Assembly: GCA_020632395.1 (NCBI GenBank)
Contig: JACKFQ010000003.1
Coordinates: forward strand, 1-51,170
From: Candidatus Nomurabacteria bacterium
GTDB lineage: Bacteria > Patescibacteriota > Dojkabacteria > SC72 > JAHDCA01
Direction: 5' to 3'
DNA length: 51,170 nt
The position numbers and the translations under genes are program-made. Positions 1,861-29,569 of the stretch are shown piece after piece. The notes beneath the pieces were generated by a model. The model was not told the origin of the DNA. It ran no database searches and saw nothing but the letters and a program-made list of their open reading frames with translations. Positions within the stretch are counted from its first letter, which is position 1, and each line of letters starts with the position of its first letter.

Positions 1861-2559
1861 ATGGTTGATCCCTTAGATAAGAATATTTACGCTCCATATC
1901 AGAGGCTGGTGGATTATGCTATAGATGCATTAAAAGATCTGGGAAGAGATCCAGTACTACTCGATGCTGGTTGTGGCCATAGCACAGCCTTAGAGGAGCA
2001 GTATAAGCGATGTGGGAAAGTTATTGGAGTGGATATGGATAGAAAAGCCCTAAATCGCAATGTCCTTATTGATACAAAGGTTTTTGCTGATATGACAAAT
2101 GTTCCTCTTCCTGATGATTCGGTTGATATTATCGTATCTGCCTGGGTATTGGAACATGTAGAAAAACCCGAGATCTTCATCAAGGAGTGTGATAGGTTAC
2201 TTAGATCAGGAGGGTATTTCATTTTCATAGCGCCGAATGTTGATGGGTGGTATGCGGTGTTGGCCAGTGAGATACCATATTTTATTCACGAATTTTTCAC
2301 AAAATTACTCTATAAAAGAGGAGAAGGAGATACATACAAGGCGTACTACAGACTGAACTCGGAAGAAGATATGGATCGTTACCTGGTAGAAGATCATAAA
2401 TATACAAAGATCAAGTATGTATACAATGATGATCCTCGTTATATCGGGTTTACTATATTTACGAGACCGTTGGCTTGGTTGTGGCAAAAGATCGTTATGA
2501 TGAAGCGGATGGAAAAATTCCGTCTGCATGTAATAGGTTTGTACAAAAAGCCTAGTTGA
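1861..2559 (+). CDS. Class I SAM-dependent methyltransferase
   Basis: LLDAGCG motif I, VIGVDMD, VPLPDDSVDIIVSAWVLEHV, LLRSGGYF; probable start ATG 1861 (ORF opens at TTG 1777). Confidence 0.88.
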   Translation: MVDPLDKNIYAPYQRLVDYAIDALKDLGRDPVLLDAGCGHSTALEEQYKRCGKVIGVDMDRKALNRNVLIDTKVFADMTNVPLPDDSVDIIVSAWVLEHVEKPEIFIKECDRLLRSGGYFIFIAPNVDGWYAVLASEIPYFIHEFFTKLLYKRGEGDTYKAYYRLNSEEDMDRYLVEDHKYTKIKYVYNDDPRYIGFTIFTRPLAWLWQKIVMMKRMEKFRLHVIGLYKKPS

Positions 2560-2596
2560 TGATATTATCTTAGCAATAAAATATAGGCCATAGATT

Positions 2597-3751
2597 ATGA
2601 CCATATTCACTAAAAAAGGAAAAAAGAACATGAAGTTGGCGGAGCTTACAGAGATCCTTCACGAACTGCGTATTCCAACTTCACTTGTGTTGACGCCAAC
2701 GAATCTAAATACAGAAATGGAGAAATTCTTGAATTCTGAGGATTACAACCCTCAATTTGAATATCGGATAGTAAATAATAAGAATGACAAGCTCTTTCAG
2801 ATTCTTGCATCTCTCGAGAGTGTTACAGATGTAGACCCAAGATTATCAGAATTCTATATTCAACTAATTGAATCAAAGAAACTGTCTTCTGATCTAATGC
2901 ACGCAGTAGGTGATAATGTACGATTTACAAAATTATCCATAAAACGATTTAGGATGCCTACGCCAGTACTTTTCAGAAATGCTTGTCGTGTACTTAGGAG
3001 GTATGTGTCAATGTATGATCTGTCAGAACCAAAGAAAGATAGGCGAAAAATGGGCTTTGATGAGGTGGCTGCAGTTATAAATACTGTCCTAGAAGAATTT
3101 GAACTCAAGGAGTGGAGTGCTAATAAGTCTATGAACATAGCACAAAATGGAATGAAGGTAGGAGTCAAAAACAAGGAGATCCTGATCGATCCAAACATTG
3201 AGACCACTCCCTCCCGCTTACGCAAATCTATCGTTCACGAATTTACACATGTGATCAGATCACATAATGGTCTGAAGACAGGCTATGAGGCTCTTTCTAA
3301 GCCTACATATGGTGATTATCTGGAGGTCGAGGAAGGACTAGCTGTATATAATGAGGAGATAATGGGGTTATTGAGCTATTCTGACTTAAGAAAAGGTGCC
3401 GTTTCGGCCTGGGGGACATATATCGGTCAAGAGATGTCTTTCAGGGAGCTTCATAATGTATATAGCTCTATCTATACAAAGAAAAATGCATTCCTTCGGG
3501 TTCTTCGTGTAAAGAGAGGTTTAGGCGATACTTCAATGCCGGGGATATACTCAAAAGATGTTGCGTATTTTAGAGGTTTTAGGAGGGTAAGGAAGAAATG
3601 TGCTGAAGATGCAACATTGTATGCAAAATTGTATGCAGGAAAGATCAATTTCAAACAGGTCAGTTGGGTTGATGATGGATTGATCAGAAAACCTGCTATT
3701 GTTCCTAGTAAACAGAGATTTGAGAAGGCCTTTAAGAAAGCCGGTATATAG
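2597..3751 (+). CDS. DUF1704/MATCAP-family zinc peptidase (QEGLA/EEGLA-motif protein)
   Basis: HEFTH..R..NG, EEGLA, RVKRG, YSKDVAYFRG and LYAGKI motifs; alternative start ATG 2630. Confidence 0.85.
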   Translation: MTIFTKKGKKNMKLAELTEILHELRIPTSLVLTPTNLNTEMEKFLNSEDYNPQFEYRIVNNKNDKLFQILASLESVTDVDPRLSEFYIQLIESKKLSSDLMHAVGDNVRFTKLSIKRFRMPTPVLFRNACRVLRRYVSMYDLSEPKKDRRKMGFDEVAAVINTVLEEFELKEWSANKSMNIAQNGMKVGVKNKEILIDPNIETTPSRLRKSIVHEFTHVIRSHNGLKTGYEALSKPTYGDYLEVEEGLAVYNEEIMGLLSYSDLRKGAVSAWGTYIGQEMSFRELHNVYSSIYTKKNAFLRVLRVKRGLGDTSMPGIYSKDVAYFRGFRRVRKKCAEDATLYAKLYAGKINFKQVSWVDDGLIRKPAIVPSKQRFEKAFKKAGI

Positions 3752-3774
3752 ATCAGAAATGTGTGGTATAGCAC

Positions 3775-3857
3775 CCATGATCTGTATCTAGCCATGGTCT
3801 ATATCTAGCCCTGGTCTATATCTAGCCATGATCTGTATCTAGCCATGGTCTGTAGAG
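3775..3857. repeat. Tandem repeat, about 5 x 17 bp (CCATG(A/G)TCT(G/A)TATCTAG) between convergent genes
   Basis: Units at 3775, 3792, 3809, 3826 and partial 3843. Confidence 0.9.
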
Positions 3858-3886
3858 CCATAGAAATATTGAGTTATGGGGACGGT

Positions 3887-4855
3887 TTACGGGTTCTTTT
3901 CTTCAGAAAAGGAAGAAATTAGGGCATCTGCGATATTTACGGGATCGCCATCTAGGCACTTTGTCTCATATGCATTGAAACCGGGGTGTAGACTGAGTTC
4001 CAGAACATATGGTTTACCTTGCTTATAAATAATATCTACCGCCATAAAATCCGCCCGCAAAGCCCGCGCAACCGTTTCTGCAAGTGTTCTTTCTGCGTCG
4101 GTTGGATCGTTATGATACAGGTATGTAGAACCTTTTGTGACAGTAAGAAAGCTGTTTGGAGGGGAGATCCGCTTCCATCCTGCAATTACATGGCCTTTAG
4201 AGACAAAGATCCTGAGATCTTCCCCAATATCTACGAATTCTTGTGCAATATAGTCATTTTCTTTGATCGAATCCAAAACCTCTTCATGCCAATCCTCCGG
4301 TGATCTCACCAGATATATATTCTTTTTTATCTTTTCTTCGCCATCGATAAGCTTTATCGCGTTCTCACCCGAATTGATCTTGAGGATGATAGGGTATTCC
4401 AAAGGTCCAATGTTCAGATGGTAATCTCTATTGGCACTGAAATATGTTTTCAGATGAGGAATGTTGTACTGTAGGCAGATGTTTGCCATCCATGTTTTGG
4501 TGTATTCTTGCATCATTTTTATTGCATGAGCGTTCTGAACGAGAATTTTCTTTGAGGGATTTTCTTTGTTCCAACGGTCTATTACTGATACGATGAGCTG
4601 TTTTAACTCATAGGAATTATCAGTAACGTAATGACCTCCCAAGAGTATATGCGTGTATGAAACGATGTCTTCACCATCTACGGTAATTGTTGTTTTATCA
4701 TTAGCAAACTCGACCTGAAGGCTGTTATAGTACGCAAATGTGCTTTCATATCCATGTTTATCGATCTCCTCGAGGATGCGTGAAACTCGCTTAGGAAACT
4801 TGCCAGTTGTAGCAATTCGTTGAGTTTTATCTAATACTAAAAATCTCATTAACAT
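3887..4855 (-). CDS. RimK-like ATP-grasp ligase (divergent)
   Basis: PIILK, YIAQEFV, DLRIFV..G.VI, AVDII, YVLELSLHPGF pattern of RimK/LysX ATP-grasp enzymes. Confidence 0.8.
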   Translation of the reverse strand: MLMRFLVLDKTQRIATTGKFPKRVSRILEEIDKHGYESTFAYYNSLQVEFANDKTTITVDGEDIVSYTHILLGGHYVTDNSYELKQLIVSVIDRWNKENPSKKILVQNAHAIKMMQEYTKTWMANICLQYNIPHLKTYFSANRDYHLNIGPLEYPIILKINSGENAIKLIDGEEKIKKNIYLVRSPEDWHEEVLDSIKENDYIAQEFVDIGEDLRIFVSKGHVIAGWKRISPPNSFLTVTKGSTYLYHNDPTDAERTLAETVARALRADFMAVDIIYKQGKPYVLELSLHPGFNAYETKCLDGDPVNIADALISSFSEEKNP

Positions 4856-5265
4856 CTTGGAAGAATTTAACCTTCAAATTATAACAGGGTGGGGGAGCTT
4901 GAGGAAATATCCTGATCTAAAAATACAACAGCTTTCTGGGATGGAAAAATTCAAAGTCATCTCAAGTCGTTGTTCAGCACAGATGCTGATTTGAGAGTGG
5001 AGTGGGAGTCAGTCGATTTGTGAAACAAAGAAAAACTATCGTGGAACAAAGGGACCTTTTTCGGCATCCATTAGTTATGCAAAAATTGTGACTTTATCGG
5101 AATGGATACGGAAAGGTAAGCAGATATGTTGTCTGAACGGTGTATATTGGGCATGTACAATATATTTGAACATGGAACTTCAGAGCAAATTTGACTTGGT
5201 CGATAGCTTCATCAAATAGATGAATTCAAACGAAAAATGAGGTAAGGATGTCGGACCCGATCAGC

Positions 5266-6930
5266 TCATGCCAGGGCGATCTTTTGACTGATCAGACCAT
5301 CATGGATACGATCTTCGAAAAGCTCAGGGATATCTGTGACTAGAATATCTATCCTGTCAAAACCGGTTCCGTACATTTCTACTGATTCGATGTTGTCATG
5401 AACGATCACAATATTATCCAAAGAAGCATTGATCTTTAGTGCCCGCACTGCTACATGATGATCCATTGCATCATTCAACTTATCTCCATTCATGTAAAGA
5501 CTGTTTCGGTGGTATATACCGGTTCGTGAGTTTGGTTCTACAAGGCCTTTTTCAAGAAGTATTTGATATACATCTTCAACCTGGCCGATCATAACGATCC
5601 CTTTACAATACGGTTTATTCTGAATTAGACCCGAAACTATCTTAGAACCTATATCAGGATATTGCTTACCTAGTACCGGAAATGAGTTCAGATACGATTC
5701 CGGCATGGTGTTGAATTCTATGAAGCTTCCATTCTCTATAGTAAGAGTTTTTGAAATATCCCTGCAAATTACGTCTATACCAACAACATTGGCGTGGATA
5801 CTAGATGCGATCGATTCTGCAATAGATCTGATCTGTGGATGAACTTTATCTGTAAAGTCTTCTGTGATGCCACCTTGACTCATACTTGCAACTTTTCGCA
5901 CATATATGCGTTCTTGGTCGTTTGGTATGTGCTCTAGAGATAATCCTTGTTCCTCTAGGAATTCCTGTAGTGGGACATCAAAATTTATGGGTTTAAGTAT
6001 GTGTGCAGGATTTTCAATGTTTCTTCTGGGATCCTTGTTGATATCTTCTATAAGGCTTCGTATAGAACTTTTCCCATCTCCTACAATAAATGCGGGAATT
6101 CGCTTGGTAGCGATCTCCAGTTTTCCATTCACTACGAGTAGGCGATAATCATCCCCATAAACTTGTTGTTGGATCATGACGTTTGTTTGCCAAATGGCCC
6201 TATTCTTTTTTCCTATGATATCTTTTGCATAATTATATGCATGGATCGCATGGTCGATATCGTTGATATTTGTTGTCACTCCACTTCCTTGTGTTAAGCC
6301 TGTTGGCTTTATCACAACAGGTTTTGTAAATGTCTCAAAAAGTTCTCGGAGATGTGCTTCGGACTCGATCACGTCCCATGGGGCTATTGGCATTTTTAAC
6401 TGAGTGACTACAAGATTTGATATCCTCTTATCTCTAGAGGATTTTAATGCAAGTATTGAATCTCCACTGCTACCAGAAGATACCGTCACACCAGAATGTC
6501 TTCCCATTCCGACGCGGTAATATCGATTCCATTGTGATGGACTTCCGGTTGTATAGAGGTCGATCTCTCCATCCATAAAAAATTGATTCAGTTCAAGACC
6601 CATATCACGAGCAGCGACTAGGATAGGGATCGTGGACATGGAATATACCTGTCCACGGATGATCTTGTTGAGTAGGGAATCTTTCGCCTCATCGTATGTT
6701 ATCTGTCCGGTCGCATAGCTATTTAATGTTTTTGAGGCTTCTTTCCATAGTTGTGGCAATTTTGTTTGGATCGAAAGTACATTTCCTTCAACGGAATAGT
6801 CGTACATGAAGATGTCATGAAATCCTCGGAGAAGATCGATTAGATCTGTCTTTGGTGTTGCATCCATTTCTACGATTACTGTAGTGTAGGGGTTTTTTAG
6901 GTTAATTCCTTGTAGGGTTGTGATGTTCAT
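5266..6930 (-). CDS. Cyanophycin-synthetase-like ATP-grasp protein with degenerate Mur-ligase C-terminus (CphA2-like architecture)
   Basis: PVVIKPTGLTQGSGVT, DYRLLVVNG, KRIPAFIVGDGKSSI..LI...N.DPRR, SMSQGG, GIDVI, EFN; C-terminal GTGFDRIDILV resembles CphA GLGFDRCDVAV but no GTNGKT P-loop. Confidence 0.8.
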   Translation of the reverse strand: MNITTLQGINLKNPYTTVIVEMDATPKTDLIDLLRGFHDIFMYDYSVEGNVLSIQTKLPQLWKEASKTLNSYATGQITYDEAKDSLLNKIIRGQVYSMSTIPILVAARDMGLELNQFFMDGEIDLYTTGSPSQWNRYYRVGMGRHSGVTVSSGSSGDSILALKSSRDKRISNLVVTQLKMPIAPWDVIESEAHLRELFETFTKPVVIKPTGLTQGSGVTTNINDIDHAIHAYNYAKDIIGKKNRAIWQTNVMIQQQVYGDDYRLLVVNGKLEIATKRIPAFIVGDGKSSIRSLIEDINKDPRRNIENPAHILKPINFDVPLQEFLEEQGLSLEHIPNDQERIYVRKVASMSQGGITEDFTDKVHPQIRSIAESIASSIHANVVGIDVICRDISKTLTIENGSFIEFNTMPESYLNSFPVLGKQYPDIGSKIVSGLIQNKPYCKGIVMIGQVEDVYQILLEKGLVEPNSRTGIYHRNSLYMNGDKLNDAMDHHVAVRALKINASLDNIVIVHDNIESVEMYGTGFDRIDILVTDIPELFEDRIHDGLISQKIALA

Positions 6931-6936
6931 AATCTA

Positions 6937-6954
6937 TCCAGCTAACTTATAGTG
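6937..6954 (+). repeat. Dispersed 18-bp motif, copy 2 (TCCAGCTAACTTATAGTG)
   Basis: 6 bp from the start codon of the minus-strand CphA-like gene. Confidence 0.85.
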
Positions 6955-7083
6955 CGAACTGAGCGAATGAAAAGAATTGATATAGTAGGTATATTAAATA
7001 ATTCTAAAGAAACACATACTCACTAGTTCCCTCTCTGCATGATGTGGATCAACAGCGGTATTCTATTGATTCTATACTGTAGA

Positions 7084-8487
7084 TCAACTGTTTCCAAGTC
7101 GTTGCTCTATCTGCTCCATGATCGAACCTACTTTGACACGCTGTTGCTCCAGAGTGTCCCGATCCCTAATGGTGACGGAATCATCTTCGAGGGAGTCAAA
7201 ATCGATTGTGATACACATTGGTGTTCCGATCTCATCTTGCCTGCGGTATCGCTTACCGATACTTCCTGTTTCATCGTACTCCACAACGAACAAGTTTTGT
7301 AGTGAGCTTTTGATCTTTTGGGCAATTTCGATCAGTTTTACATCTTTGACCAACGGGAATATAGCTACCTTTACAGGTGCTAGAGAAGGCTTGATCTTCA
7401 TCACAAGCCTAGTTGAACCATCTTCCAGCGTTTCTTCCGTATAACCCTGATCTAGTACTGCTAGAACCATCCTGTTTAGACCACCAGAGGTTTCCATAAT
7501 ATGAGGGATATATTTTTCGTTCCTTTCTTGGTCGAAATATTCTAGATTCTCTCCTGAAAATTCCTGATGCCTAGAAAGATCCCAATCTCCTCTTTGGTGG
7601 ATACCTTCAACTTCTGCAAATGCCCCTAAAGTCCTAAAATTGTATTCGATATCTACAGCTGCACTAGCATAGTGGGCTAATTTTTCATGATCCTTGAATC
7701 TCAGCGACTCTTTTTCAATACCGAGCTCTTCGATCCACCATCTCATTCGCGCCTCCTTCCAATATTCGTACTTTTCATTCATCAATGAAGGATGTAGGAA
7801 CAACTGCATCTCTGCTTGTTGGAATTCTCGAGTCCTAAAGATATACTGTCTTGCGACAACCTCATTCCTAAAGGCTTTTCCAACTTGAGCTATACCAAAA
7901 GGTAACTTCACTCGCATTGTTTGCAGATAGTTCTTGTAGTTCAGATAGATTCCTTGGCAGGTCTCTCCTCTAAGATAGACAACATTTTCCTCTGTAAGTT
8001 CGGAAGTAGGGGATCCCAGATTTGATTTGACGAGTAGATCAAACTTTTTAGCGTCAGTAAGATCAGTTCCACCACACTTTGAACATTTAAGCTTTCCTTC
8101 CTCACGGAGTTTTGCTACATGCTCGTTCACCTCATCGATAGGGAGTCTGTCAGCTTCCATTATCCCAAAAGGCTCCAAAAGTTGGTCGGCTTTCATTCTA
8201 TTTTTACAGGTTCTACAGTCGATCTCAGGTTCAACGAAAGAATCTACATGACCACTTGCTTTCCATACTTTCGGATGTGTAAAAATACCAGAATCAAGGT
8301 ATTTGATCTCATCATGACTCAACATACTCTTAATCCATGAATTTTTGATATTCTCTCGTAATAATGCCCCATAATGTCCATAATCATAAACAGCTGCAAA
8401 GCCGCCATAGATCTCTGATGATTGGAATATGAACCCACGCCTTTTTGCATATGCAGAGAGTGTGTCTAATGTAATTTTCTGTTCCAT
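7084..8487 (-). CDS. glyQS: Glycine--tRNA ligase, alpha2 (homodimeric) type
   Basis: KRRGFIFQSSEIYGG, LRGETCQG, GKAFRNE, FRTREFQQAE, EVEGIHQRGD, GSIGKRYRRQDEIGTP. Confidence 0.97.
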   Translation of the reverse strand: MEQKITLDTLSAYAKRRGFIFQSSEIYGGFAAVYDYGHYGALLRENIKNSWIKSMLSHDEIKYLDSGIFTHPKVWKASGHVDSFVEPEIDCRTCKNRMKADQLLEPFGIMEADRLPIDEVNEHVAKLREEGKLKCSKCGGTDLTDAKKFDLLVKSNLGSPTSELTEENVVYLRGETCQGIYLNYKNYLQTMRVKLPFGIAQVGKAFRNEVVARQYIFRTREFQQAEMQLFLHPSLMNEKYEYWKEARMRWWIEELGIEKESLRFKDHEKLAHYASAAVDIEYNFRTLGAFAEVEGIHQRGDWDLSRHQEFSGENLEYFDQERNEKYIPHIMETSGGLNRMVLAVLDQGYTEETLEDGSTRLVMKIKPSLAPVKVAIFPLVKDVKLIEIAQKIKSSLQNLFVVEYDETGSIGKRYRRQDEIGTPMCITIDFDSLEDDSVTIRDRDTLEQQRVKVGSIMEQIEQRLGNS

Positions 8488-8616
8488 TTGAATTATATAA
8501 AAGATAATTTAACTAAAACTTGCTATAAGAGCTCTCTAGGCTCTATGGCTATTATTACGTTATAAATAGGCATGCAGCCCATAACTAACAAGAACACCTG
8601 CGTAGACCGCACCTGC

Positions 8617-8757
8617 CTAGACCACACTTGCCAAACTAGCATCTAGTAGATCCCCACCAATATCCTCGACCAGGAGAGCGTAGATAGGACCTAGCATTGC
8701 TCCAGCAACTATTATTAAAGAATTAGTAAAGAGTAGCACCTTCAGAGCCTTGTTCAT
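8617..8757 (-). pseudogene. 5' remnant of an MFS transporter gene (46 aa, premature stop)
   Basis: MNKALKVLLFTNSLIIVAGAMLGPIYALLVEDIGGDLLDASLASVV* resembles the first TM segments of small CPR/archaeal MFS transporters; stop lies in a degenerate 15-bp tandem duplication. Confidence 0.6.
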
Positions 8758-8783
8758 CTAGCAGTGAGATCTGAACTTAAATG

Positions 8784-8820
8784 AAAAAACCGTCCTCTAA
8801 CAGAAACTGATAGGGACGGT
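8784..8820 (-). terminator. Intrinsic terminator of the T-box leader
   Basis: Minus strand ACCGTCCCT-ATCAGTTTCTGTT-AGAGGACGGT followed by a T run. Confidence 0.85.
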
Positions 8821-8961
8821 AGTAAACTTCCGCGGTTCCACCCATATTGCAAATCCTATAAGGTATTTGCCACTCATGGTAATATCGATTGTATGCCATA
8901 CCTAAAGCTCTTTGCAGGGTTTTCACTATCTCCTGCTCACTCGGATAGATCTCAGTAGGTT
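8784..8961 (-). promoter_or_regulatory. T-box riboswitch (glycine) upstream of glyQS
   Basis: AATATGGGTGGAACCGCGG T-box consensus overlapping a terminator; UGGA bulge fits tRNA-Gly UCCA; Stem I-like GAGTGAG bulge plus CAGG/CCTG hairpin with AGTGAA loop; GGC codon at 8897-8895. Confidence 0.88.
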
Positions 8962-8965
8962 ATTG

Positions 8966-8995
8966 ATTATATTGGTAAACCGACCTGAGAGTCAA
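8966..8995 (-). promoter_or_regulatory. sigma70-type promoter for the T-box/glyQS transcript
   Basis: TTGACT (8995-8990), 18 nt, TATAAT (8971-8966). Confidence 0.6.
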
Positions 8996-9057
8996 TTAAA
9001 AGGGAAATAATGGTGACCTATAGGAGACTGTGTAATATCATATACAATCGAGGATTC

Positions 9058-9900
9058 TCATTCCGAGAGCACTTTATTGGTTTTGTAATACTTCTTCCAA
9101 CTACTCTCAAATAGGAGACTTTCAAACTGGTAGAGATATTCGTCTTCAATAATTATGGCATAGGAAGTGGTGGGTGATATCAGACATACTTTGCCTTCGT
9201 AGATATATTTCTCAAAGCTACCAGAATGCTCACTCGATGATCCAGGAATAACAAGAACATTTATGAACTCTTCATCTACCTCATCCTCAATATGTTTGGA
9301 CCCAGAAAGTTCACCAAAATATATCTGCCTTAATAGTATCCCTCGTACAGCACACTTTTCGAGAAATCGTTCCGACCCTGTCTTTATCGCTGTAGTACGT
9401 GATCTTTCACTCCCTCGTGGCCGTCCAGTAGTAGGGTCAGGATCAAGGTATGCTATACCCATCAGCTCCTTTGAACGGTAAACATCATCGTATGCATCTT
9501 TTAATCCTTCTTTACCAACAAGAACTCTAATTGGGGGAGATTCTGACTGTTGCCTGGCGTATAGCAATTCTAGCTGGTGTATGGATCTCTCAAGGGTATA
9601 TGCCGTATCGGAGATCCTATTTCGCTTATATTGCACCTGCTCGAGGAGTAGGTCTGGGTCATGTGCTTTGAATACAGCCGTTTTCACGCCCACATCCTTA
9701 CTAAGGAGGTCCCAGTCCTCTAAGGTCTGTACAGCATCATAGATGGTGGTTCTAGGTATCTTTGTCCTCTTTGATATTGCAGAGGCGGTTGAAGGGCCAT
9801 ATTGGAGTAGGGAAAGATATATCTCAGCGTGTTCATCTGTCATACCCAACTCTACAAACGATCTTTTCACTAGTTTTGTCGTACTCTGCGACACACTCAT
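9058..9900 (-). CDS. TrmB-family transcriptional regulator
   Basis: N-terminal wHTH LGMTDEHAEIYLSLLQYGPSTASAISKRTKIPRTTIYDAV, coiled linker, GKEGLKDAYDD and YIYEGKVCLIS typical of CPR TrmB proteins. Confidence 0.85.
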   Translation of the reverse strand: MSVSQSTTKLVKRSFVELGMTDEHAEIYLSLLQYGPSTASAISKRTKIPRTTIYDAVQTLEDWDLLSKDVGVKTAVFKAHDPDLLLEQVQYKRNRISDTAYTLERSIHQLELLYARQQSESPPIRVLVGKEGLKDAYDDVYRSKELMGIAYLDPDPTTGRPRGSERSRTTAIKTGSERFLEKCAVRGILLRQIYFGELSGSKHIEDEVDEEFINVLVIPGSSSEHSGSFEKYIYEGKVCLISPTTSYAIIIEDEYLYQFESLLFESSWKKYYKTNKVLSE

Positions 9901-10167
9901 AGATAATCTTATTGCGATAGGTTATATCTGTCGACACATTCGACAACACCAATATACAACTATACATCGACGATCAGATCGAATCAAGCGCAAAGATAAG
10001 CATCAAGGGATGGATCAGATCTACAAATGTTTCAATACAAATGTTTCAATACGATAGGGATCCGAGAGGTAAGGGGTGTCCACGATAGTAGAATAACAGT
10101 CGGAAACTAGGGCTTCCAACGATCTGAAGTAATTGTAAGTGTCCGATCGCTGAGGGATAGGGGAGGT

Positions 10168-11139
10168 CTATATATTCTCCCTGATATACTGCATTATCGG
10201 TGTTGCGACGTCAACGATCTTCCCTTTGTCAGCTTTATAATGTACGCGAAGACCTGGGTTGTAGTTGATCTCGTTGATCACGCATGGGGCCTGTTTTGTC
10301 ACATCCTCGGCGATCAGATCTACCCCTCCAACTTTCAGTCCAAGTACCTGTGTTGCCTTGATTGCGAGGTCAAGATAATATGGATCGATCTCATCTAGAC
10401 ACTCTTCTGTCGTTCCACCTGTGGATTGGTTTGAATTGAGCCGTACTTCGACTTCTTCACCTCTTTGAGGGATACTATCCAGGGTTAGATTATTTGCCCA
10501 TAGTCTTTTTTCTACTTCCTTATCTAATCGAATAGGCTTAAGAAGACGGTCTTTTCTTTGTTGATTTGTGCTAATGATAAGCTGTTCTATCGTATTTGAT
10601 CCATCACCCACAATGTAGGCGGCTCTCCTTCTTACTGCTCCTATCACTTTGTCATCACATACTAATATTCTGTAATTAGTTCCTGTACAAAATTCTTCTG
10701 CAAGGACTTTGACGTTTGTACTTGAGAGATTTGTTGCCAGTGCTGTTTGGAATCCGTGTCGTACTTCATGTTCGCTCTTTGGGAGGAGACTAACACCATT
10801 ACCACCGAGATTTTGAACAGGCTTGAGCACAATATTTCCAAATTCCTTCCAAAAATCTATAGCCTCTTCTTCATTGTTGATCTCTCTCTGCTCTGCTACC
10901 GGAATACCTCCGACCTTTAATACCTTGTATGCGAGATTCTTTCTTTTGGAAATGGTTGTGCTTGGGACATTGTTGACAGGTAGGGCGGTGTTCAAGATGA
11001 ACCAGTGTTTTCCGTTATCTGAGAATCGAGCCATTAATGAGCGTACGATGATCTCGTATTGTATTCCTAATTTATCAGCTGCCTCTACATAATAGGCTAA
11101 ATGAACATTTCCAGCTTCAGCGAGGTAATCTTTCGTCAT
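10168..11139 (-). CDS. Stand-alone ATP-grasp ligase of the CphA/GshF ATP-grasp type
   Basis: IVLKPVQNLGGNGVS, NYRILV, RRAAYIVGDGSNTIEQLI, SNQSTGG, GGVDLI, NEINYNPG. Confidence 0.85.
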   Translation of the reverse strand: MTKDYLAEAGNVHLAYYVEAADKLGIQYEIIVRSLMARFSDNGKHWFILNTALPVNNVPSTTISKRKNLAYKVLKVGGIPVAEQREINNEEEAIDFWKEFGNIVLKPVQNLGGNGVSLLPKSEHEVRHGFQTALATNLSSTNVKVLAEEFCTGTNYRILVCDDKVIGAVRRRAAYIVGDGSNTIEQLIISTNQQRKDRLLKPIRLDKEVEKRLWANNLTLDSIPQRGEEVEVRLNSNQSTGGTTEECLDEIDPYYLDLAIKATQVLGLKVGGVDLIAEDVTKQAPCVINEINYNPGLRVHYKADKGKIVDVATPIMQYIRENI

Positions 11140-11255
11140 TATCGTATTAAAGAAATTAAAATATTTTGAGTGTATAAGAATAATTTAAGGTTATTTTGAT
11201 CTTTATTCTATACAATCTACCAAACATGAAAACAAAACTAAATATTCACTAAGGT

Positions 11256-12713
11256 CTATTTTGTGAATGTCTTACTTGCATCGATAAGATAATCAGTTAA
11301 CTCGCTACGACCGATCAATAGGGGGTAGACCATATCGGTTTGTGTACTTATCACGGCTTCTATTGTTTTGATAACTCCTGCGATCTTGATCTTGATCTCT
11401 ATCACGGGGCGAACAACGATATGACCCGCTTCTGTGATCTTAGCAAGTCTTTTTATCATCGGATGTTCGATCAGATGTTCCTCGTGTAGATCTATGTATT
11501 CTTGTGCTAGGGCGAGGGTTTCGAATCGCTCAGGGATCTCGAATTGGTTGACAGTCTTAAGTGCATCAGAAAACCCTATGCGACTCGCGAGACCTTTATC
11601 AATTCGTGATGTGAGTATCCCTGTATCAAGCATACCACTAACGACATCTTTCTTTTCTTTCCTTGTGTTGTAGTAGATAGTTATGCGCTCAACCAGATTT
11701 ACGACCTGTTTACCTGAAAGTGCTTCGATCCCTTCCTCTACCTCACCACCAAAGAGATTTTTAGCAACTCTTACACCATGCTTAATACTCTTTATCTTCA
11801 AGCCTTCTACGCGCTCCAACCGTTCACGCAGTCCTGAATTGTTTGCGGTCTGTATCCCGAGGCCTGGACGAGCATTTAATTCCAATACTAAAGGTCCTTT
11901 TTCTTTGTCGATCACGATATCTACACCCAAATAACCCAAGTGACTTGCATGTTGGCATTTGATGGCGATCTCGAGTATCTCATCCCAAAATGGTACTTTG
12001 ATACCTCTTACAGGCATATTTTGCTTCAGATCCATTGTTTGATCGATACTTTCATAAGTGTCTTCAAACACTGATTTGTTTTTCATATGCATGGCATATG
12101 TGCTGATTCCAGAAGCTATGTCTATGCCTGCACAGATCCCACCGGCATGTAGATTTGCCTTCCCATCTGATCTTTTTGTCGGAAGCCTAACCATCGCCAT
12201 TACTGGTACTTGGTTGTATACGATCAAACGAATATCAGGAACTCCTTTGTATGAATATCGCTTTAACTCAGGGTGTGTTTTTATCCTTTCTTCGATTATT
12301 ACGACATCATTATTATTTCCCATGGAGAAACGACCTTCTAAGATCTTTTCCATGTGTGCACGGATATCTTCTGGTCCCATGATCTGTCCGTTTGGTCTTA
12401 TCCATGCAAGCTGATTCTTCTTCTTCCCATAAAAGATTATGATACCACTACCTATTGATCCTCGATTGGGCTTTACTACAAAGCTGTTTGGAAGAGATTC
12501 CCAATCTAGGTATTCTAATTGTTTTTTTGTACGAATGACCTTAAATGTTTCTGGTGCATCGATACCAATTTTTGCTAGTACCCTTTTTGTCAACAGCTTA
12601 TTATCAGCCAATCTCTTAGCTGATAGGGGGTTGTGAGGTCGGATATATATCTGGTTTCTGCGGTTTATAGCCAAAACCTCTTTCTTGTTGTGACTAAGAA
12701 GAGCTTTTATCAT
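11256..12713 (-). CDS. Alpha-L-glutamate-ligase-like (ATPgrasp_ST) ATP-grasp fused to a RimB-like retropepsin aspartic protease domain
   Basis: INRRNQIYI..HNP, FVVKPNRGSIGSGI, GVPDIRLIV, MAMVRLPT..SDGKANLHAGG, LELNARPGLGIQ; C-terminal LDTG..TS, RPVI, MVYPLLIGR. Confidence 0.85.
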   Translation of the reverse strand: MIKALLSHNKKEVLAINRRNQIYIRPHNPLSAKRLADNKLLTKRVLAKIGIDAPETFKVIRTKKQLEYLDWESLPNSFVVKPNRGSIGSGIIIFYGKKKNQLAWIRPNGQIMGPEDIRAHMEKILEGRFSMGNNNDVVIIEERIKTHPELKRYSYKGVPDIRLIVYNQVPVMAMVRLPTKRSDGKANLHAGGICAGIDIASGISTYAMHMKNKSVFEDTYESIDQTMDLKQNMPVRGIKVPFWDEILEIAIKCQHASHLGYLGVDIVIDKEKGPLVLELNARPGLGIQTANNSGLRERLERVEGLKIKSIKHGVRVAKNLFGGEVEEGIEALSGKQVVNLVERITIYYNTRKEKKDVVSGMLDTGILTSRIDKGLASRIGFSDALKTVNQFEIPERFETLALAQEYIDLHEEHLIEHPMIKRLAKITEAGHIVVRPVIEIKIKIAGVIKTIEAVISTQTDMVYPLLIGRSELTDYLIDASKTFTK

Positions 12714-13365
12714 TCTTGAGGATCTGCTCGAATCTTAATAAGTCTTTGAATCGCATTCCGGTATATTTACCTAATCCTAAATTGACCAGTAATAGTATCA
12801 AGAAGATCCATACATTATTTAGGACAAATTGCTGTAATTGGGGTGATCGCAATGCGAGCCAACCTGCTATTCCCACTAATACGGTTTCTCCTAAAGAACG
12901 TGCAGAATTCAAGAAATCCTTTTTAACATACTGTTTAATGAAAAAGTCAGAAAGTGTCGCTATCAGGATCACACCTAGTGGAGGTATGGTTGTAGCATCA
13001 TGATGTTCTGTGGTAAGACTTATCGGAGAGACGTCATTTAAAACTATCACACCAACTACAAGTACAGATATCAAAATGTAATTGATGGTAATTCTGGAAA
13101 GATAATGCATCCTGATCTTCTTCAGTAGGCTGTATGTGAGTAATGTTGAGAGTATAACGGCCAATGTCACAAGTAGTCCAAACCTTATACCCGTAAATAT
13201 ATAGGCAAATGAAAGTGTCATTGGCGCATAAATCCCTAGAGTCTTAAAACCTATCAAATATCGTGAAAGATTTACTATTGTTGCTATGATAGGAATAAAA
13301 AGTAGCAGGATCAGCATCTGCTCGGTAACACCATGCTGTGTGATCCAGGTTGTGATCTCGGACAT
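12694..13365 (-). CDS. 7TM_transglut-family membrane protein
   Basis: Polytopic; LLFIPIIATIVNLSRYLIGFKTLGIYAP and LGKYTGMRFKDLLRF match the 7TM family encoded with glutamate-ligase-like ATP-grasps; overlaps the downstream start. Confidence 0.85.
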   Translation of the reverse strand: MSEITTWITQHGVTEQMLILLLFIPIIATIVNLSRYLIGFKTLGIYAPMTLSFAYIFTGIRFGLLVTLAVILSTLLTYSLLKKIRMHYLSRITINYILISVLVVGVIVLNDVSPISLTTEHHDATTIPPLGVILIATLSDFFIKQYVKKDFLNSARSLGETVLVGIAGWLALRSPQLQQFVLNNVWIFLILLLVNLGLGKYTGMRFKDLLRFEQILKNDKSSS

Positions 13366-13500
13366 CTTTAGGGAGTTTGATAGTTTAGGTGGATGTGAAT
13401 ATTATACCATAACAAAGGGGTTTTATCAATATCACCCTCTGTTTCATACATGTAGTGTACATTGAATTTAATGAAACAAAAATAGACCTATAAGGTTCAG

Positions 13501-13730
13501 GCTGTATCAGGCTGTATCAGTCAGTATCAGTCAGTATCAGGCAGTATCAGTCAGTATCAGTCAGTATCAGGCAGTATCAGTCAGTATCAGGCAGTATCAG
13601 GCAGTATCAGTCAGTATCAGGCGGTATCAGGCAGTATCAGTCAGTATCAGTCAGTATCAGGCGGTATCAGGCGGTATCAGGCAGTATCAGGCAGTATCAG
13701 GCGGTATCAGGCGGTATCAGGCGGTATCAG
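13501..13730. repeat. Tandem repeat, 23 x 10 bp ((G/T)C(A/G/T)GTATCAG)
   Basis: Unbroken 10-bp register with four unit variants gctgtatcag, tcagtatcag, gcagtatcag, gcggtatcag. Confidence 0.97.
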
Positions 13731-13875
13731 CAGGCTCAGGCTGTATCAAGCAGGCTCAGCCTGTACAGAACATGATGAGCCGTTATAAGTAGAATACATG
13801 ATGAACTTTCGATCGCGAATGACCTCAATGTCATCGATCTCTGAGGTGGAGAACCGTTACCAACAAAAAGACAAT

Positions 13876-13903
13876 AAAAAAGGGGTGCTTGCGCACCCCT
13901 TTA
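13876..13903 (-). terminator. Intrinsic terminator after rplL
   Basis: AAAGGGGTGC-GCAA-GCACCCCTTT followed by T run on the minus strand. Confidence 0.85.
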
Positions 13904-26266: not shown

Positions 26267-27121
26267 ATGGAAACCCCCTCAAAACAATTACCCGATGAAG
26301 CAATATATGTCTTGGTCTCATTTATCCTAATTATTATGCATATTATTTCGCTCTCAGGATATGTAAGTATCTTCGTAGAACCTATCGGAAAGCCTTTAAT
26401 GGCGCTCTCAGAAGATGCAGGTACTTCAATTTCCGATACCTTCTCTGCAGTTGGCGAGATCGGATCTATCAGAAGAGAAAGGAATGATCTGCTAATCGAG
26501 AATGCCATACTTAGAGCTGAAAATTCGACAGTGAAATTTCTTTTGGATGAGATAGGCTTGCTACAGGTTGAACTTCAACTATCTCCTGATGAAGAATTTA
26601 GAGCAGAAACTTCGGTCCTGAGTGATGGTCATGAGACAGCTAACGAATATCTGATAGTCGATAAAGGTAGTCAAGAAGGCATCTTGGAAGGAGATATTGT
26701 GCGTTTAGGAAATATATTCATCGGTAAGGTCGACACCGTGAACAAGAGAACATCTATAGTCGACCTTCCAACTAGCGGAGAACGATACTGGAGAGTAGTT
26801 GTAGTTAGCAAAGATGAGAAATTATTGAAAACACCAGTAGATGAGCTAAAGCTCTCAGATGAAACTACAACAGAGAGTTGGCCGGGTGTGGCAATTGGAA
26901 AAGATACTGGGATCGTAGTCCAGAACATACCTAATAGTGCTACGGTTAAGGTCGGTGATTATGTTTTTGTAAATGATGCAGATGTGGGTACAGTTCTCTA
27001 TCTGGGTGAAGTTGCAGCAGTTGATTACGATCCTGCTGCGGTAGGTGTGGAGGTAGCTGTGAAATTGCCTGTAGAGTACCAGTATCTGACTAATTTGTTC
27101 GTTGTACGGCCCGGTGGGTAA
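26267..27121 (+). CDS. mreC: Rod shape-determining protein MreC
   Basis: N-terminal TM, coiled coil ENAILRAEN, IVDKGSQEGILEGDIV; position after mreB. Confidence 0.88.
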   Translation: METPSKQLPDEAIYVLVSFILIIMHIISLSGYVSIFVEPIGKPLMALSEDAGTSISDTFSAVGEIGSIRRERNDLLIENAILRAENSTVKFLLDEIGLLQVELQLSPDEEFRAETSVLSDGHETANEYLIVDKGSQEGILEGDIVRLGNIFIGKVDTVNKRTSIVDLPTSGERYWRVVVVSKDEKLLKTPVDELKLSDETTTESWPGVAIGKDTGIVVQNIPNSATVKVGDYVFVNDADVGTVLYLGEVAAVDYDPAAVGVEVAVKLPVEYQYLTNLFVVRPGG

Positions 27122-27611
27122 TATATTTGTACTAATATTTGTAGGAGTGGTCTTAGCTATGGTAGAAGTGATATTCACTTCTGCAAGTTTGATATCTCCA
27201 GTCGCAGTAGTAGCTCTGTTACTATCAAAAAGATTAACTGTCAGATCTTCTGTGATCGTATACCTTATGGTCACATTGTTGATCGATCCTTTCTATGGAC
27301 ATCTTTTAGGGGTGTATTTCATTTCCATAACAGCATTACTATTGGCTTATAATACGCTAAAACGGGTATTGCCCTATGAACAATTGTTGGTTCGGATCAT
27401 CATCCTGTTTCTATCGTTCATGATCTTCCACTTCTTTAAGATGATAATGATCGATATCAGTAGTGGTTCATTAGTTCGGACTGATGGTATAGACATACTG
27501 CTTTTCTCACTGCCAAGGTCTATAATTGAAACCGTGATATTCTTACTGCTGGATCTGCTTAATTCTAATTATCTAGGAGGTGAGAATAGGTCAGTAAAAG
27601 TTAAGATTTAG
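27102..27611 (+). CDS. mreD: Rod shape-determining protein MreD-like membrane protein
   Basis: 169 aa, about 5 TM, LLIDPFYGHLLG; between mreC and PBP2. Confidence 0.7.
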   Translation: MYGPVGNIFVLIFVGVVLAMVEVIFTSASLISPVAVVALLLSKRLTVRSSVIVYLMVTLLIDPFYGHLLGVYFISITALLLAYNTLKRVLPYEQLLVRIIILFLSFMIFHFFKMIMIDISSGSLVRTDGIDILLFSLPRSIIETVIFLLLDLLNSNYLGGENRSVKVKI

Positions 27612-27628
27612 ATCAAAAAGAATTATCA

Positions 27629-29569
27629 ATGACAGGGATATGGGATCTGGAACAGAAAAAAGTGTCGAGCTGGAATTTCATCCTCGCATTTATACTATTT
27701 GGGGCAATAATTGTTGCGTTGCTGAGCTCTGTTATAGATCTCCAGATAGTCCAAGGCGCTGATTACTCTGAAAGATCCCAGAACAATCAGATCAAAACGA
27801 GCTATGTATATCCTAATCGGGGAGTGATCTTTGATAGAGATGGAAGGAAGTTGGCAGAGAATGTTGCAGCAACAAACTTAGTATTAGAGATCGAACCTTT
27901 TTATGATGATGAAGGATTGAATATTAAAGAATTGACACCAATACTTGATAAGATCGGAACAATAACAAAAGATAAGTGGAAAGAACTCCGACCTGCTCGT
28001 GAGGCTGAAGTACAGATCGAGGACCTGAAGGGTTATGTGACATACATGATCGAACGACTTGAGAAAAAGGAAGGGGTATATGCAAGATACGGTTCGATCC
28101 TGCTGGCAGCAGATCTAGATAATGAAACTACCATCGACCTTAAAGCAGCAAAAGACGAATTACCAGGAGTTATGATAGAGGAGGGATATAAGAGATATTA
28201 CCCAGAAGGAGCATATTTCTCACATCTTTTGGGTTACACCAGTATAGTCACAGCGGAAGATCTCGAGGATCTGCAATACCTTGGATATGACGATAGTATA
28301 GCTTTTAATGGGTTCAAGGATGTTATCGGAAGGTTAGGTATCGAGGCAGTATATGATGAACAGTTGATCGGTAAGAAGGGCGTTAGTGCAAAAGAAAAGG
28401 TCACTGGGGTTGAGCGTATGGTCGAACCTGTCGTAGATGGTTTGAATCTTTACACATCTATCGACATAGATGCCCAGAAAAAGATGCAGGATCTTCTCAT
28501 CAAAGCTGTAGAAGAGCGGGATGCAACTGGTGCTTCGGGGATTGTGATGGATGTCGATACTGGAGAATTGATCGTAATGGTGTCCACCCCGTCATACGAT
28601 AATAATGATTTTGTAGGTGGTGTAGCACAAGCAACTTATGACAAATTATTGAACGATCCCAAAATTCCTCTACTGAACCGAAGCATTGCTGCTCAACTCC
28701 CACCCGGCTCAACATTCAAGACACTTTCAGCCACTGGTGGATTAGCATCAGGCGCTATAGATACAAATACCCTGTATACAAGTAGGTCAGGATATACATT
28801 TAGCAATGGAGCACCTTTTCAGGAGTATCGTGGTAACTCGTATGGAACATTGAATGTTGTCGGTGCACTATCAGTATCATCAAATATTTTCTTTTGCGAA
28901 ATGATCAGAAATTGGGATATCAATGAGTTAGCCCCATACTATGAAATGTTTGGGATAGGTTCTGTGACAGGAGTAGATCTGGTTGGCGAGATGCCCGGCA
29001 GAGTACCATCACCAGCAAATAAGATAGCTCTTTCAAAGATCCCCGGTATCACCTGGTTAGAACCTGTTTGGTATCCGGAAGGAGATGGTTGTAATTCGGT
29101 AATAGGTCAGGGAATTGCCCTGGTCACACCTATACAGATGGTAAATTGGATCTCAGCTATAGCAAATGGAGGTGTGTTGAATACTCCACATATTGGCAAT
29201 TACTTTGTTCAGAAGGATGGAGGAAAAGTGAGTATCGATCATACACCTATCAGACAGGTGGATGTTTCAGACGATGTGCTATCAGTAGTCCGTAAAGGTA
29301 TGCGTGAAGCCGTAGCCGGTTCAAGAAGGAGTATTTGGGCACTAACAGATGCCAAGGTAGATGTTGCTGCAAAAACCGGTACAGCGGAGTTCGGAGCCTT
29401 GAACGAGAAGGGGATCTATGAGCACACGCATGCATGGGTGACAGGATTCTTTCCATACGAAAAACCAAAATATGCATTTGTGTTACTTCTTGAGGATGGT
29501 GGTGAGAGTTATCAGGCTGCCGAAGTAGCCAGAGAATACATTGACTGGTGGATCCAAAATATGAAGTAG
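27629..29569 (+). CDS. mrdA: Penicillin-binding protein 2 (class B)
   Basis: PNRGVIFDRDG, GSTFK (SxxK), SSN (SxN), KTGT motifs. Confidence 0.93.
   Translation: MTGIWDLEQKKVSSWNFILAFILFGAIIVALLSSVIDLQIVQGADYSERSQNNQIKTSYVYPNRGVIFDRDGRKLAENVAATNLVLEIEPFYDDEGLNIKELTPILDKIGTITKDKWKELRPAREAEVQIEDLKGYVTYMIERLEKKEGVYARYGSILLAADLDNETTIDLKAAKDELPGVMIEEGYKRYYPEGAYFSHLLGYTSIVTAEDLEDLQYLGYDDSIAFNGFKDVIGRLGIEAVYDEQLIGKKGVSAKEKVTGVERMVEPVVDGLNLYTSIDIDAQKKMQDLLIKAVEERDATGASGIVMDVDTGELIVMVSTPSYDNNDFVGGVAQATYDKLLNDPKIPLLNRSIAAQLPPGSTFKTLSATGGLASGAIDTNTLYTSRSGYTFSNGAPFQEYRGNSYGTLNVVGALSVSSNIFFCEMIRNWDINELAPYYEMFGIGSVTGVDLVGEMPGRVPSPANKIALSKIPGITWLEPVWYPEGDGCNSVIGQGIALVTPIQMVNWISAIANGGVLNTPHIGNYFVQKDGGKVSIDHTPIRQVDVSDDVLSVVRKGMREAVAGSRRSIWALTDAKVDVAAKTGTAEFGALNEKGIYEHTHAWVTGFFPYEKPKYAFVLLLEDGGESYQAAEVAREYIDWWIQNMK

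Follow-up and report, generated by a model that had tools for sequence, protein, structure and literature searches.

The closest described system to the locus reported here is the rloABC operon of Pseudomonas aeruginosa, which encodes an RloC-type ATP-grasp ligase, the seven-transmembrane (7TM) protein RloB, and the retropepsin RloA (Lormand et al., mBio 2025, PMC12239564). Genetic work in Pseudomonas shows that RloB and RloC make something that RloA must process; RimK makes poly-α-glutamate, and RloA and RimB cut runs of at least eight glutamates (PMC12239564). We analyzed a stretch of 51,170 nucleotides from Candidatus Nomurabacteria bacterium (Patescibacteriota, Dojkabacteria; contig JACKFQ010000003.1, positions 1 to 51,170), here called the window, which contains a block of genes for four ATP-grasp ligases, two peptidase domains, and a 7TM protein. 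This block is one conserved functional unit of Dojkabacteria, in which a ligase operon converges on an mreB2–MATCAP gene pair. It represents an enlarged version of the rloABC and rimKB kind that is wholly cytoplasmic and tied to the membrane. A literature search, whose scope did not take in the 2009 survey of amidoligases, returned no description of such a cluster in Dojkabacteria or Patescibacteria.

The likeness to rloABC lies in three common families (PF14397/TIGR02291, PF14402, and PF05618) that occur in one operon, with the 7TM gene beside the ligase gene. In Pseudomonas, however, the retropepsin is secreted, whereas here it is fused to the C-terminus of a cytoplasmic ligase and has no signal peptide. 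RloB has an inactive transglutaminase domain, which the window 7TM protein lacks, and the block adds three ligases and a MATCAP-type peptidase. The host is a member of the Patescibacteria (Candidate Phyla Radiation, CPR), whereas 96% of RloB matches are in Proteobacteria (PMC12239564). RimK and RimB provide a second parallel, being a cytoplasmic ligase and a bound cytoplasmic retropepsin that cuts poly-Glu, and the ligase–retropepsin fusion mirrors that complex. Unlike in that system, all four ligases fall below the RimK cut-offs (PRK10446, ≤33 bits versus 331; TIGR00768, ≤69 bits versus 143), and a membrane partner is always present.

All seven genes singled out in the initial annotation of the window are intact open reading frames (ORFs) with the domains ascribed to them, as judged from the ORF list and from Pfam, NCBIfam, and PDB sequence comparison of the window proteins. 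The ligase operon lies on the reverse strand. Its first gene encodes a 223-amino acid membrane protein of the 7TM_transglut family (positions 12694–13365; PF14402, 61.8 bits), and this ORF overlaps the start of the next gene by 20 nucleotides. The second gene encodes a 485-amino acid fusion of an ATPgrasp_ST ligase and a retropepsin (11256–12713; PF14397 and PF05618). There follow a 323-amino acid ligase of the CphA G-domain/GshF type (10168–11139; PDB 7lgn, E-value 3.8e-34), a 554-amino acid CphA2-like ligase (5266–6930; best PDB matches 8fxh and 7ta5, E-value ~1e-40), and a 322-amino acid RimK-like ATP-grasp ligase (3887–4855; PF08443, 40.6 bits). On the forward strand, facing this operon, are genes for an MreB paralog, MreB2 (435–1427; PF06723, 431 bits), and for a 384-amino acid zinc metallopeptidase of the MATCAP/DUF1704 family (2597–3751; PF08014, 84.7 bits against a cut-off of 27).

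Conservation of this arrangement was assessed by scanning an alignment of the fusion protein against one genome per species. A relative was found in 326 genomes, and the best 80 loci were kept, all from Dojkabacteria and all with full-length fusion homologs (53–73% identity). The window proteins were then searched on these loci by tblastn, and the counts below refer to loci with room on the contig for the gene in question. The recurring order is rplJ–rplL, then 7TM, fusion, 323-amino acid ligase, 554-amino acid ligase, and RimK-like ligase, with the MATCAP gene and the MreB paralog convergent to these. The 7TM gene is upstream of the fusion gene at 73 of 73 informative loci, and the 323-amino acid ligase is likewise found at every one (74 of 74). 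The 554-amino acid ligase occurs at 63 of 65, the RimK-like ligase at 58 of 62, MATCAP at 53 of 55, and the MreB paralog adjoining MATCAP at 45 of 48; each partner is thereby found at 93–100% of informative loci. The L12 gene occurs at 57 of 63. Median gaps within the ligase operon are, in order, -14, 8, 10.5, and 2 nucleotides, and that between the MreB paralog and MATCAP is 18 nucleotides. At one locus (L003) the five ligase-operon genes are contiguous. By these counts the clustering is far beyond chance. The genes that the initial annotation had grouped by proximity are thus clearly linked in the 80 related loci, and the four ligases, the two peptidase domains, and the 7TM protein make up one functional unit (45–74 of 48–74 loci, depending on the gene).

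Several genes within the window block do not share this conservation. By tblastn, none of the 80 related loci contains a homolog of the S-adenosylmethionine methyltransferase gene (1777/1861–2559, forward strand; PF08241, 72 bits), which the initial annotation had counted as a co-oriented member of the system. The same holds for the gene encoding a TrmB-type helix-turn-helix protein (9058–9900, reverse strand; PF01978). The glycyl-tRNA synthetase gene glyQS (7084–8487, reverse strand; NF003211, 571 bits) is preceded by a T-box (8809–8976, reverse strand), a sub-threshold Rfam match of 45 bits against a gathering cut-off of 93 (E-value 1.8e-8 in a 1-kb search). Across the 80-plus related loci, glycyl-tRNA synthetase occupies this position in the window and its nearest relatives, L001 and L002, and nowhere else, which bears out the earlier suspicion that its position inside the block is a coincidence. 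The T-box and glyQS, the gene for the TrmB-like protein, and that for the methyltransferase are lineage-specific insertions and lie outside the system. The T-box leader lies ~320 nucleotides upstream of glyQS, with a strong promoter-like site ahead of it (TTGACT, 18-nucleotide spacer, TATAAT; 8995–8966). The inserted methyltransferase (1861–2559) matches the PADLOC model mad2 with 54 bits, which is probably a generic methyltransferase similarity.

The arrangement is a real feature of the genome. The window sequence recurs in activated-sludge and wastewater metagenomes from several independent studies; one independent run carries an identical 10.5-kb contig spanning 3043–13543, and a second contains a strain ~99.6% identical with unchanged gene order. 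Because independent DNA runs show the same order, the arrangement, including glyQS and TrmB, is no assembly artefact. Two non-coding segments of the block also stand out. The CphA2-like and RimK-like genes are separated by a 411-nucleotide spacer (4856–5265), for which the median in relatives is 2 nucleotides; it holds no convincing ORF, and an extended -10 box (TGtTATAAT) occurs ~30 nucleotides before the RimK-like start. The convergent gap between the MATCAP and RimK-like genes has a 17-nucleotide tandem repeat, CCATGGTCTGTATCTAG, in 4.7 copies (3775–3854), and a related strain (run X13) has one additional CCATGGTCTGTATCTAG unit inserted after position 3831.

That glyQS, TrmB, the methyltransferase, and the 411-nucleotide spacer interrupt the window block might be taken to mean that its genes are chance neighbors, or that they form an anti-phage or secondary-metabolite (graspetide) island; clusters with multiple ATP-grasp genes are known in pathways for peptides that are made on the ribosome and then modified (RiPPs; PMC8939145). 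However, the gene order holds throughout the class, with genes that overlap or nearly abut, and the same families are joined as domain fusions in other phyla. No PADLOC defense model matches any core gene, and no precursor-peptide gene was seen. The fixed site after rplJL in nearly every species argues for a housekeeping role rather than a mobile island, and we consider an explanation by chance or by such an island extremely improbable.

The domain fusions were found by querying 1.84 billion cluster representatives with the fusion protein, followed by Pfam scans and a named-homolog search. About 45 of the best 150 clusters at 50% identity are 745–860 amino acids in length, and all of those checked carry PF08014, that is, they are ATPgrasp_ST–MATCAP fusions. 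Their sources include Gracilibacteria, unclassified Patescibacteria, and one member of the Dojkabacteria. Single proteins also combine ATPgrasp_ST with retropepsin and MATCAP (P0130, at locus L089), ATPgrasp_ST with retropepsin and a further ATP-grasp domain (P0159, at L086), and, in Oscillatoria, 7TM with ATPgrasp_ST (P0240, NER32963.1). The RloC-type ligase is therefore fused elsewhere to MATCAP, retropepsin, a further ATP-grasp domain, or 7TM, in agreement with the proposal that these families act as one unit.

The 7TM gene also precedes the ligase gene at the loci of these fusions (L085, L086, L088, L089, and L090). At L085 a PKD–7TM protein is followed by a ligase–MATCAP fusion; at L086 the 7TM gene is followed by the triple fusion, with a RimK-like gene and another ATP-grasp gene beside it; at L088 it is followed by a 481-amino acid fusion and then RimK; and at L089 by the ligase–retropepsin–MATCAP fusion. 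L090, from a divergent member of the Dojkabacteria, has rplJL, 7TM, a ligase–MATCAP fusion, two CphA-G-like ligases, and a convergent MreB2-like gene. In the ligase–MATCAP fusions (L085:4990-7377, L090:9001-11430, and L091:9001-11373), the middle, retropepsin-like segment is degenerate, with DTS or with the motif lost. At a CPR locus and in Oscillatoria, a DUF3541 protein adjoins the 7TM/ATPgrasp_ST module (L086:11672-12607 and L087:11633-12811) and may be another accessory component of these systems.

The ligase domain of the window fusion protein (residues 1 to ~330; 11724–12713, reverse strand) matches PF14397 with 234.4 bits (cut-off 31.4) and TIGR02291 with 274 bits, which is below the hypothetical-equivalog cut-off of 314. 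These scores place it in the RloC-type family but not among its equivalogs. Across 19 aligned homologs, its ATP-grasp Mg ligands, D..E-x-N, do not vary. The RimB/RloA-type retropepsin domain (residues ~340–485 plus stop; 11256–11696, reverse strand) has an LDTG motif and matches PF05618 (29.3 bits), NF052264 RloA3 (32.8 bits), and PDB entries 2pma, 9g58, and 9g59. D363, T364, and G468–R469 are invariant in the same homologs, and G365 is nearly so; the arginine of an RPV motif occurs in most of them, and that of the GR pair in all. Their correspondence to the poly-Glu-binding residues of RloA (K46, R92, R114, and R137) is tentative, given the numbering relative to the PDB chains. Two residues ahead of the catalytic Asp, the domain has a hydrophobic residue instead of Lys. 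The absence of an N-terminal signal peptide from the retropepsin follows from its location behind a cytoplasmic ligase domain.

The 7TM protein, encoded by the first gene of the ligase operon, matches the RloB profile NF052267 over positions 310–508 of 508 (48.5 bits versus a cut-off of 900), and consists of an RloB-type 7TM domain without the extracellular transglutaminase domain. An AlphaFold2 model built from a 40-sequence alignment has a predicted local distance difference test score of 90.4 and seven transmembrane helices; a fold search of the PDB with this model gave no match (best E-value 2.2, TM-score ≤0.37). By the positive-inside rule, the N-terminus is outside and the C-terminus inside, a topology that fits both the Oscillatoria protein, with its ligase at the C-terminus, and the L085 protein, with PKD domains at the N-terminus. 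Three conserved motifs (SRYxxGxK, RMHYxxR, and GLRxKDxFRF) are all on the cytoplasmic side, which suits docking of a ligase or of an anionic substrate. The fusion protein, MATCAP, and the 7TM protein are all basic, with isoelectric points of 9.4–9.7.

The window MATCAP protein aligns to human MATCAP (PDB 7z5g; also 7z6s), with HEFTH opposite HEIGTH and an EEGLA motif common to both. HEFTH and EEGLA are conserved across 53 sequences. The eukaryotic MATCAP/TMCP enzymes, the members for which activity is known, take off C-terminal Tyr and Glu and polyglutamate branches (PMC10499314). The block resembles the pairing of these enzymes with TTL/TTLL ligases, in that a PF08014 peptidase is paired with ATP-grasp ligases, suggesting a writer–eraser logic for acidic C-terminal chains, and a cytoskeletal filament protein, MreB2, is encoded beside the peptidase. 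It differs in its peptidase motif, HExxH where eukaryotes have HExxxH, and in its ligases, which belong to the RloC, CphA, and RimK types and not to TTL. The HExxH motif belongs to the stand-alone window protein; fused CPR forms have HExxxH (HEILTH, HEIETH, and HEIDTH), like eukaryotes.

The mreB2 gene is upstream of and co-oriented with the MATCAP gene, from which it is separated in the window by the inserted methyltransferase gene. MreB2 is 46% identical to the canonical MreB of the window (25090–26205, encoded with MreC). Because a canonical MreB set is present elsewhere in the window, the MATCAP-adjacent MreB is a second, divergent paralog. The canonical elongasome genes, MreB-MreC-(MreD)-PBP2 (PBP, penicillin-binding protein), are at 25090–29569, 12 kb from the block. 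Many MreB2 orthologs have the tail GERxFSFN(R/K)DFRR, from which the tail of the window protein differs.

A rival reading is a reversible code written on protein tails. The ligases would place residues on the C-terminus, or on Glu side chains, of one specific protein, from which the retropepsin and MATCAP would take them off again, much as TTL/TTLL and MATCAP do on tubulin or RimK/RimB on ribosomal protein S6. S6, the MreB paralog, and the tail that the 7TM protein has in the cytoplasm are candidate targets. RimK, TTL, and MATCAP each work at the C-terminal ends of proteins (PMC12239564, PMC10499314), the MATCAP gene lies directly behind and co-oriented with the MreB paralog at the 45 of 48 loci counted above, and fusion of writer and eraser domains would make a sensible length-setting device. 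The 7TM proteins at two ligase–MATCAP fusion loci, moreover, end in Glu-Glu (L085, ...RFHEE; L090, ...SNTEE). In the lineage of the window, however, the last residue of the 7TM protein among 76 orthologs is Lys in 48, Asn in 8, Asp in 6, and Glu in just 3, and the window protein ends ...NDKSSS. A Glu-ending 7TM tail was rejected as the acceptor in this lineage on these numbers. The MreB2 tail was rejected as well, since its length and last residues vary (RR, IT, N, S, KE, L) and it has no conserved acidic end. In Oscillatoria the 7TM C-terminus is joined to a ligase and not free, and four ligases, two of them of the polymerase-like CphA type, exceed the needs of a simple tail. A protein-tail code is thereby weakened, since neither the 7TM nor the MreB2 tail has a conserved acidic end, and we regard it as a tentative possibility with the balance tilted against it. 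Of the writer/eraser logic put forward in the initial annotation, the grouping of ligases, peptidases, and 7TM protein into one unit stands, but the acceptors it named, the MreB paralog and the 7TM protein, find no support.

The MreB paralog also raises the question of the cell envelope. Enterococcal D-aspartate ligase is an ATP-grasp enzyme that makes a cross-bridge or side-chain peptide, and the ligases of the block might similarly build or edit a peptide on a peptidoglycan precursor or another envelope component, with MATCAP as a carboxypeptidase and the 7TM protein handling a lipid-linked substrate. This would agree with the constancy of the MreB paralog as a neighbor, which extends to the divergent locus L090, and with a gene for a class A PBP (PBP1a) within ~3 kb (2–3 genes) of the ligase–MATCAP fusion at two unrelated loci, L085 and L091. 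It would agree as well with the altered cell shape and the hypo-osmotic and β-lactam sensitivity of Pseudomonas rlo mutants (PMC12239564). Yet the block contains no Mur, MraY, FemX, or flippase gene, the window has its ordinary MreB-MreC-PBP2 set elsewhere, and the known substrates of both peptidase families are cytosolic proteins or peptides. With neighborhood hints this few (two loci and one class), a role in an envelope peptide pathway appears unlikely.

The 554-amino acid protein has an N-terminal region, an intact G (ATP-grasp) domain, and a stump of ~115 amino acids whose alignment is to the beginning of a Mur-like M domain. Its phmmer alignments to the CphA2 structures (query 173–536 on 222–581 of 642 for 8fxh; 140–538 on 174–567 of 629 for 7ta5) continue for ~100 residues after the G domain ends, reaching into the vestigial M domain. 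By this alignment, its architecture is the N–G–truncated-M layout of CphA2 (7ta5, 8fxh/8fxi), with an intact G-domain active site, and the chemistry expected from the sequence is ATP-dependent extension of a C-terminal carboxylate. It is distinguished from CphA2 by scores far under the family cut-offs (TIGR02068, 223 versus 850 bits; PRK14016, 224 versus 877), and by its setting in an Rlo-type operon that has a second, G-domain-only paralog adjoining and no cyanophycinase. That paralog, the 323-amino acid ligase, scores 204 bits with PRK14016 (cut-off 877); R157, D206, R233, N237, E290, and N292 are invariant in its orthologs, as are E405 and N407 in those of the 554-amino acid protein.

These relationships raise the possibility of cyanophycin (Asp-Arg polymer) metabolism, in which the CphA2-like protein would polymerize β-Asp-Arg dipeptides and the other enzymes would be accessory. 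CphA G domains lengthen a poly-Asp backbone, and D212 of StCphA2 (D197 of GcCphA2) salt-bridges the cyanophycin arginine (PMC10273328). Besides the CphA2 architecture, three of four putative dipeptide-pocket residues are kept in the 554-amino acid protein, D318, R345, and S351 being conserved in 62–63 of 63 orthologs. The fourth, N393 of StCphA2, is Ser in every 554-amino acid ortholog. The Arg-binding Asp aligns, with moderate local confidence, to K163, a variable column (K in 22 orthologs, E in 14, N in 11, T in 6, and others); the equivalent position of the 323-amino acid ligase is Thr in 67 of 74. An active M domain that could add Arg is lacking, and neither a cyanophycinase nor an isoaspartyl dipeptidase is encoded in the window or the related loci. 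Both CphA-like enzymes should, by their sequences, still extend a C-terminal carboxylate, but an Arg-decorated cyanophycin primer is unlikely, because the pocket is only partly kept and the Arg-binding acidic residue is not conserved. We therefore judge cyanophycin metabolism to be very improbable.

The RimK-like ligase scores 45.8 bits with TIGR00768 (cut-off 143.4) and 25 bits with PRK10446 (cut-off 331). It keeps K159, R215, R229, D274, and E286, of which K159, D274, and E286 are invariant. In place of E-x-N it has E-x-S, position 288 being Ser in 56 of 59 orthologs and Gly in 3. The Mg-ligand motifs are thus intact in three of the four ligases.

The ATP-grasp ligases typified by RimK, CphA-G, and TTL turn a carboxylate into an acyl-phosphate, to which they attach an amino acid. 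On the reading we favor, to which we assign a probability of about one half, membrane-docked ligases of this kind build an amino acid chain that the retropepsin and MATCAP edit. The ligases would act on the inner side of the membrane, anchored to conserved, basic loops that the 7TM protein exposes to the cytoplasm; the gene for the ligase–retropepsin fusion is translationally coupled to the 7TM gene. Each ligase would convert a C-terminal carboxylate to an acyl-phosphate and then join the next amino acid, and together they would make a short non-ribosomal amino acid chain or polymer, probably rich in Glu, Asp, or both. The fused retropepsin would cleave this chain internally, and the MATCAP-type metallocarboxypeptidase would shorten it from its C-terminal end, either to set its length or to recycle it. 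The chain is likely to be acidic in view of the poly-Glu chemistry of RimK, RimB, and RloA, the Tyr/Glu chemistry of MATCAP, and the poly-Asp chemistry of CphA, together with the basic character of the fusion protein, MATCAP, and the 7TM protein. As to where the chain is built, we lean slightly toward a free primer, from which a peptide or polymer would grow that the 7TM protein handles or exports.

Several observations weigh against this account of membrane-docked chain synthesis. The RimK-like ligase may be a weak enzyme or a non-enzyme, given the Ser at its Mg-ligand Asn. The three non-RloC ligases are acidic (isoelectric points of 5.5–6.0), which disfavors a polyanionic substrate for them. 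The Pseudomonas retropepsin is a periplasmic enzyme, and its logic may not carry over directly to the block. The conserved synteny of one class may partly mirror slow genome rearrangement, and independent support for the two CphA-like ligases comes solely from the divergent Dojkabacteria locus L090. Coverage of the block in run X25, which is possibly RNA although its type is not on record, is patchy and low.

We consider it doubtful that the enzymes form an all-ATP-grasp assembly line by which Dojkabacteria, and Patescibacteria at large, make a membrane-associated, non-ribosomal poly(amino acid) or protein tail. There, the RloC-type ligase would begin chain synthesis on the 7TM protein, the two cyanophycin synthetase-derived ligases and the RimK-like ligase would extend or branch it, and the fused retropepsin and the MATCAP-family carboxypeptidase would edit it.

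In the window genome, the ligase operon is probably transcribed on its own, because a hairpin behind rplL and a promoter-like site precede the 7TM gene. The terminator-like hairpin lies directly 3' of rplL (13879–13902, reverse strand; 10-base pair stem with 6 G-C pairs, then a T-run). The promoter-like site (13401–13429, reverse strand) is ~35 nucleotides upstream of the 7TM start and consists of TTGATA, a 17-nucleotide spacer, and TATAAT with a TG extension (11 of 12 consensus matches). It has the top score in 15 kb; the total number of promoter-like sites is no higher than in shuffled sequence. The spacer between the rplL terminator and the promoter of the 7TM operon is 560 nucleotides in the window versus a median of 150 nucleotides in relatives, and it is filled by ~26 tandem copies of a 10-nucleotide unit, TCAGGCAGTA (13497–13753). 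Contigs of an independent run break exactly inside this TCAGGCAGTA array.

Three other genes of the window encode proteins with unusual features. A 379-amino acid DUF3182 protein (33883–35022; PF11379, 120.8 bits) is possibly a fifth ATP-grasp-type gene product in the window, as we take this family to be a member of the Pfam ATP-grasp clan. Ribosomal protein uS2 (37951–39084) has a C-terminal domain like that of the RNA polymerase α-subunit (PF03118, 39 bits, residues 313–374). A 362-amino acid protein (20785–21873) has a weak match to 3'5'-cyclic nucleotide phosphodiesterases (PF00233, 26.7 bits), which are unusual in bacteria.

In Pseudomonas, Rlo-type systems influence osmotic tolerance and biofilm formation as well as antibiotic sensitivity and cell shape. 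In Dojkabacteria, a genome of ~1 Mb keeps four ligases and two peptidases at a fixed site in almost all species of the class, which argues for a core physiological role. The CPR versions place ligase, endopeptidase, and exopeptidase in one or two soluble proteins with a small 7TM partner, making them compact for reconstitution. Ligase–MATCAP fusions are widespread in bacteria, which bears on the origin of the eukaryotic MATCAP/TTL writer–eraser pairing. If the all-ATP-grasp assembly line were to prove true, the chemical product of the whole Rlo family would become identifiable, and the pairing of a MATCAP-type peptidase and ATP-grasp ligases, encoded beside an actin homolog, would count as a prokaryotic precursor of the eukaryotic tubulin tail code.

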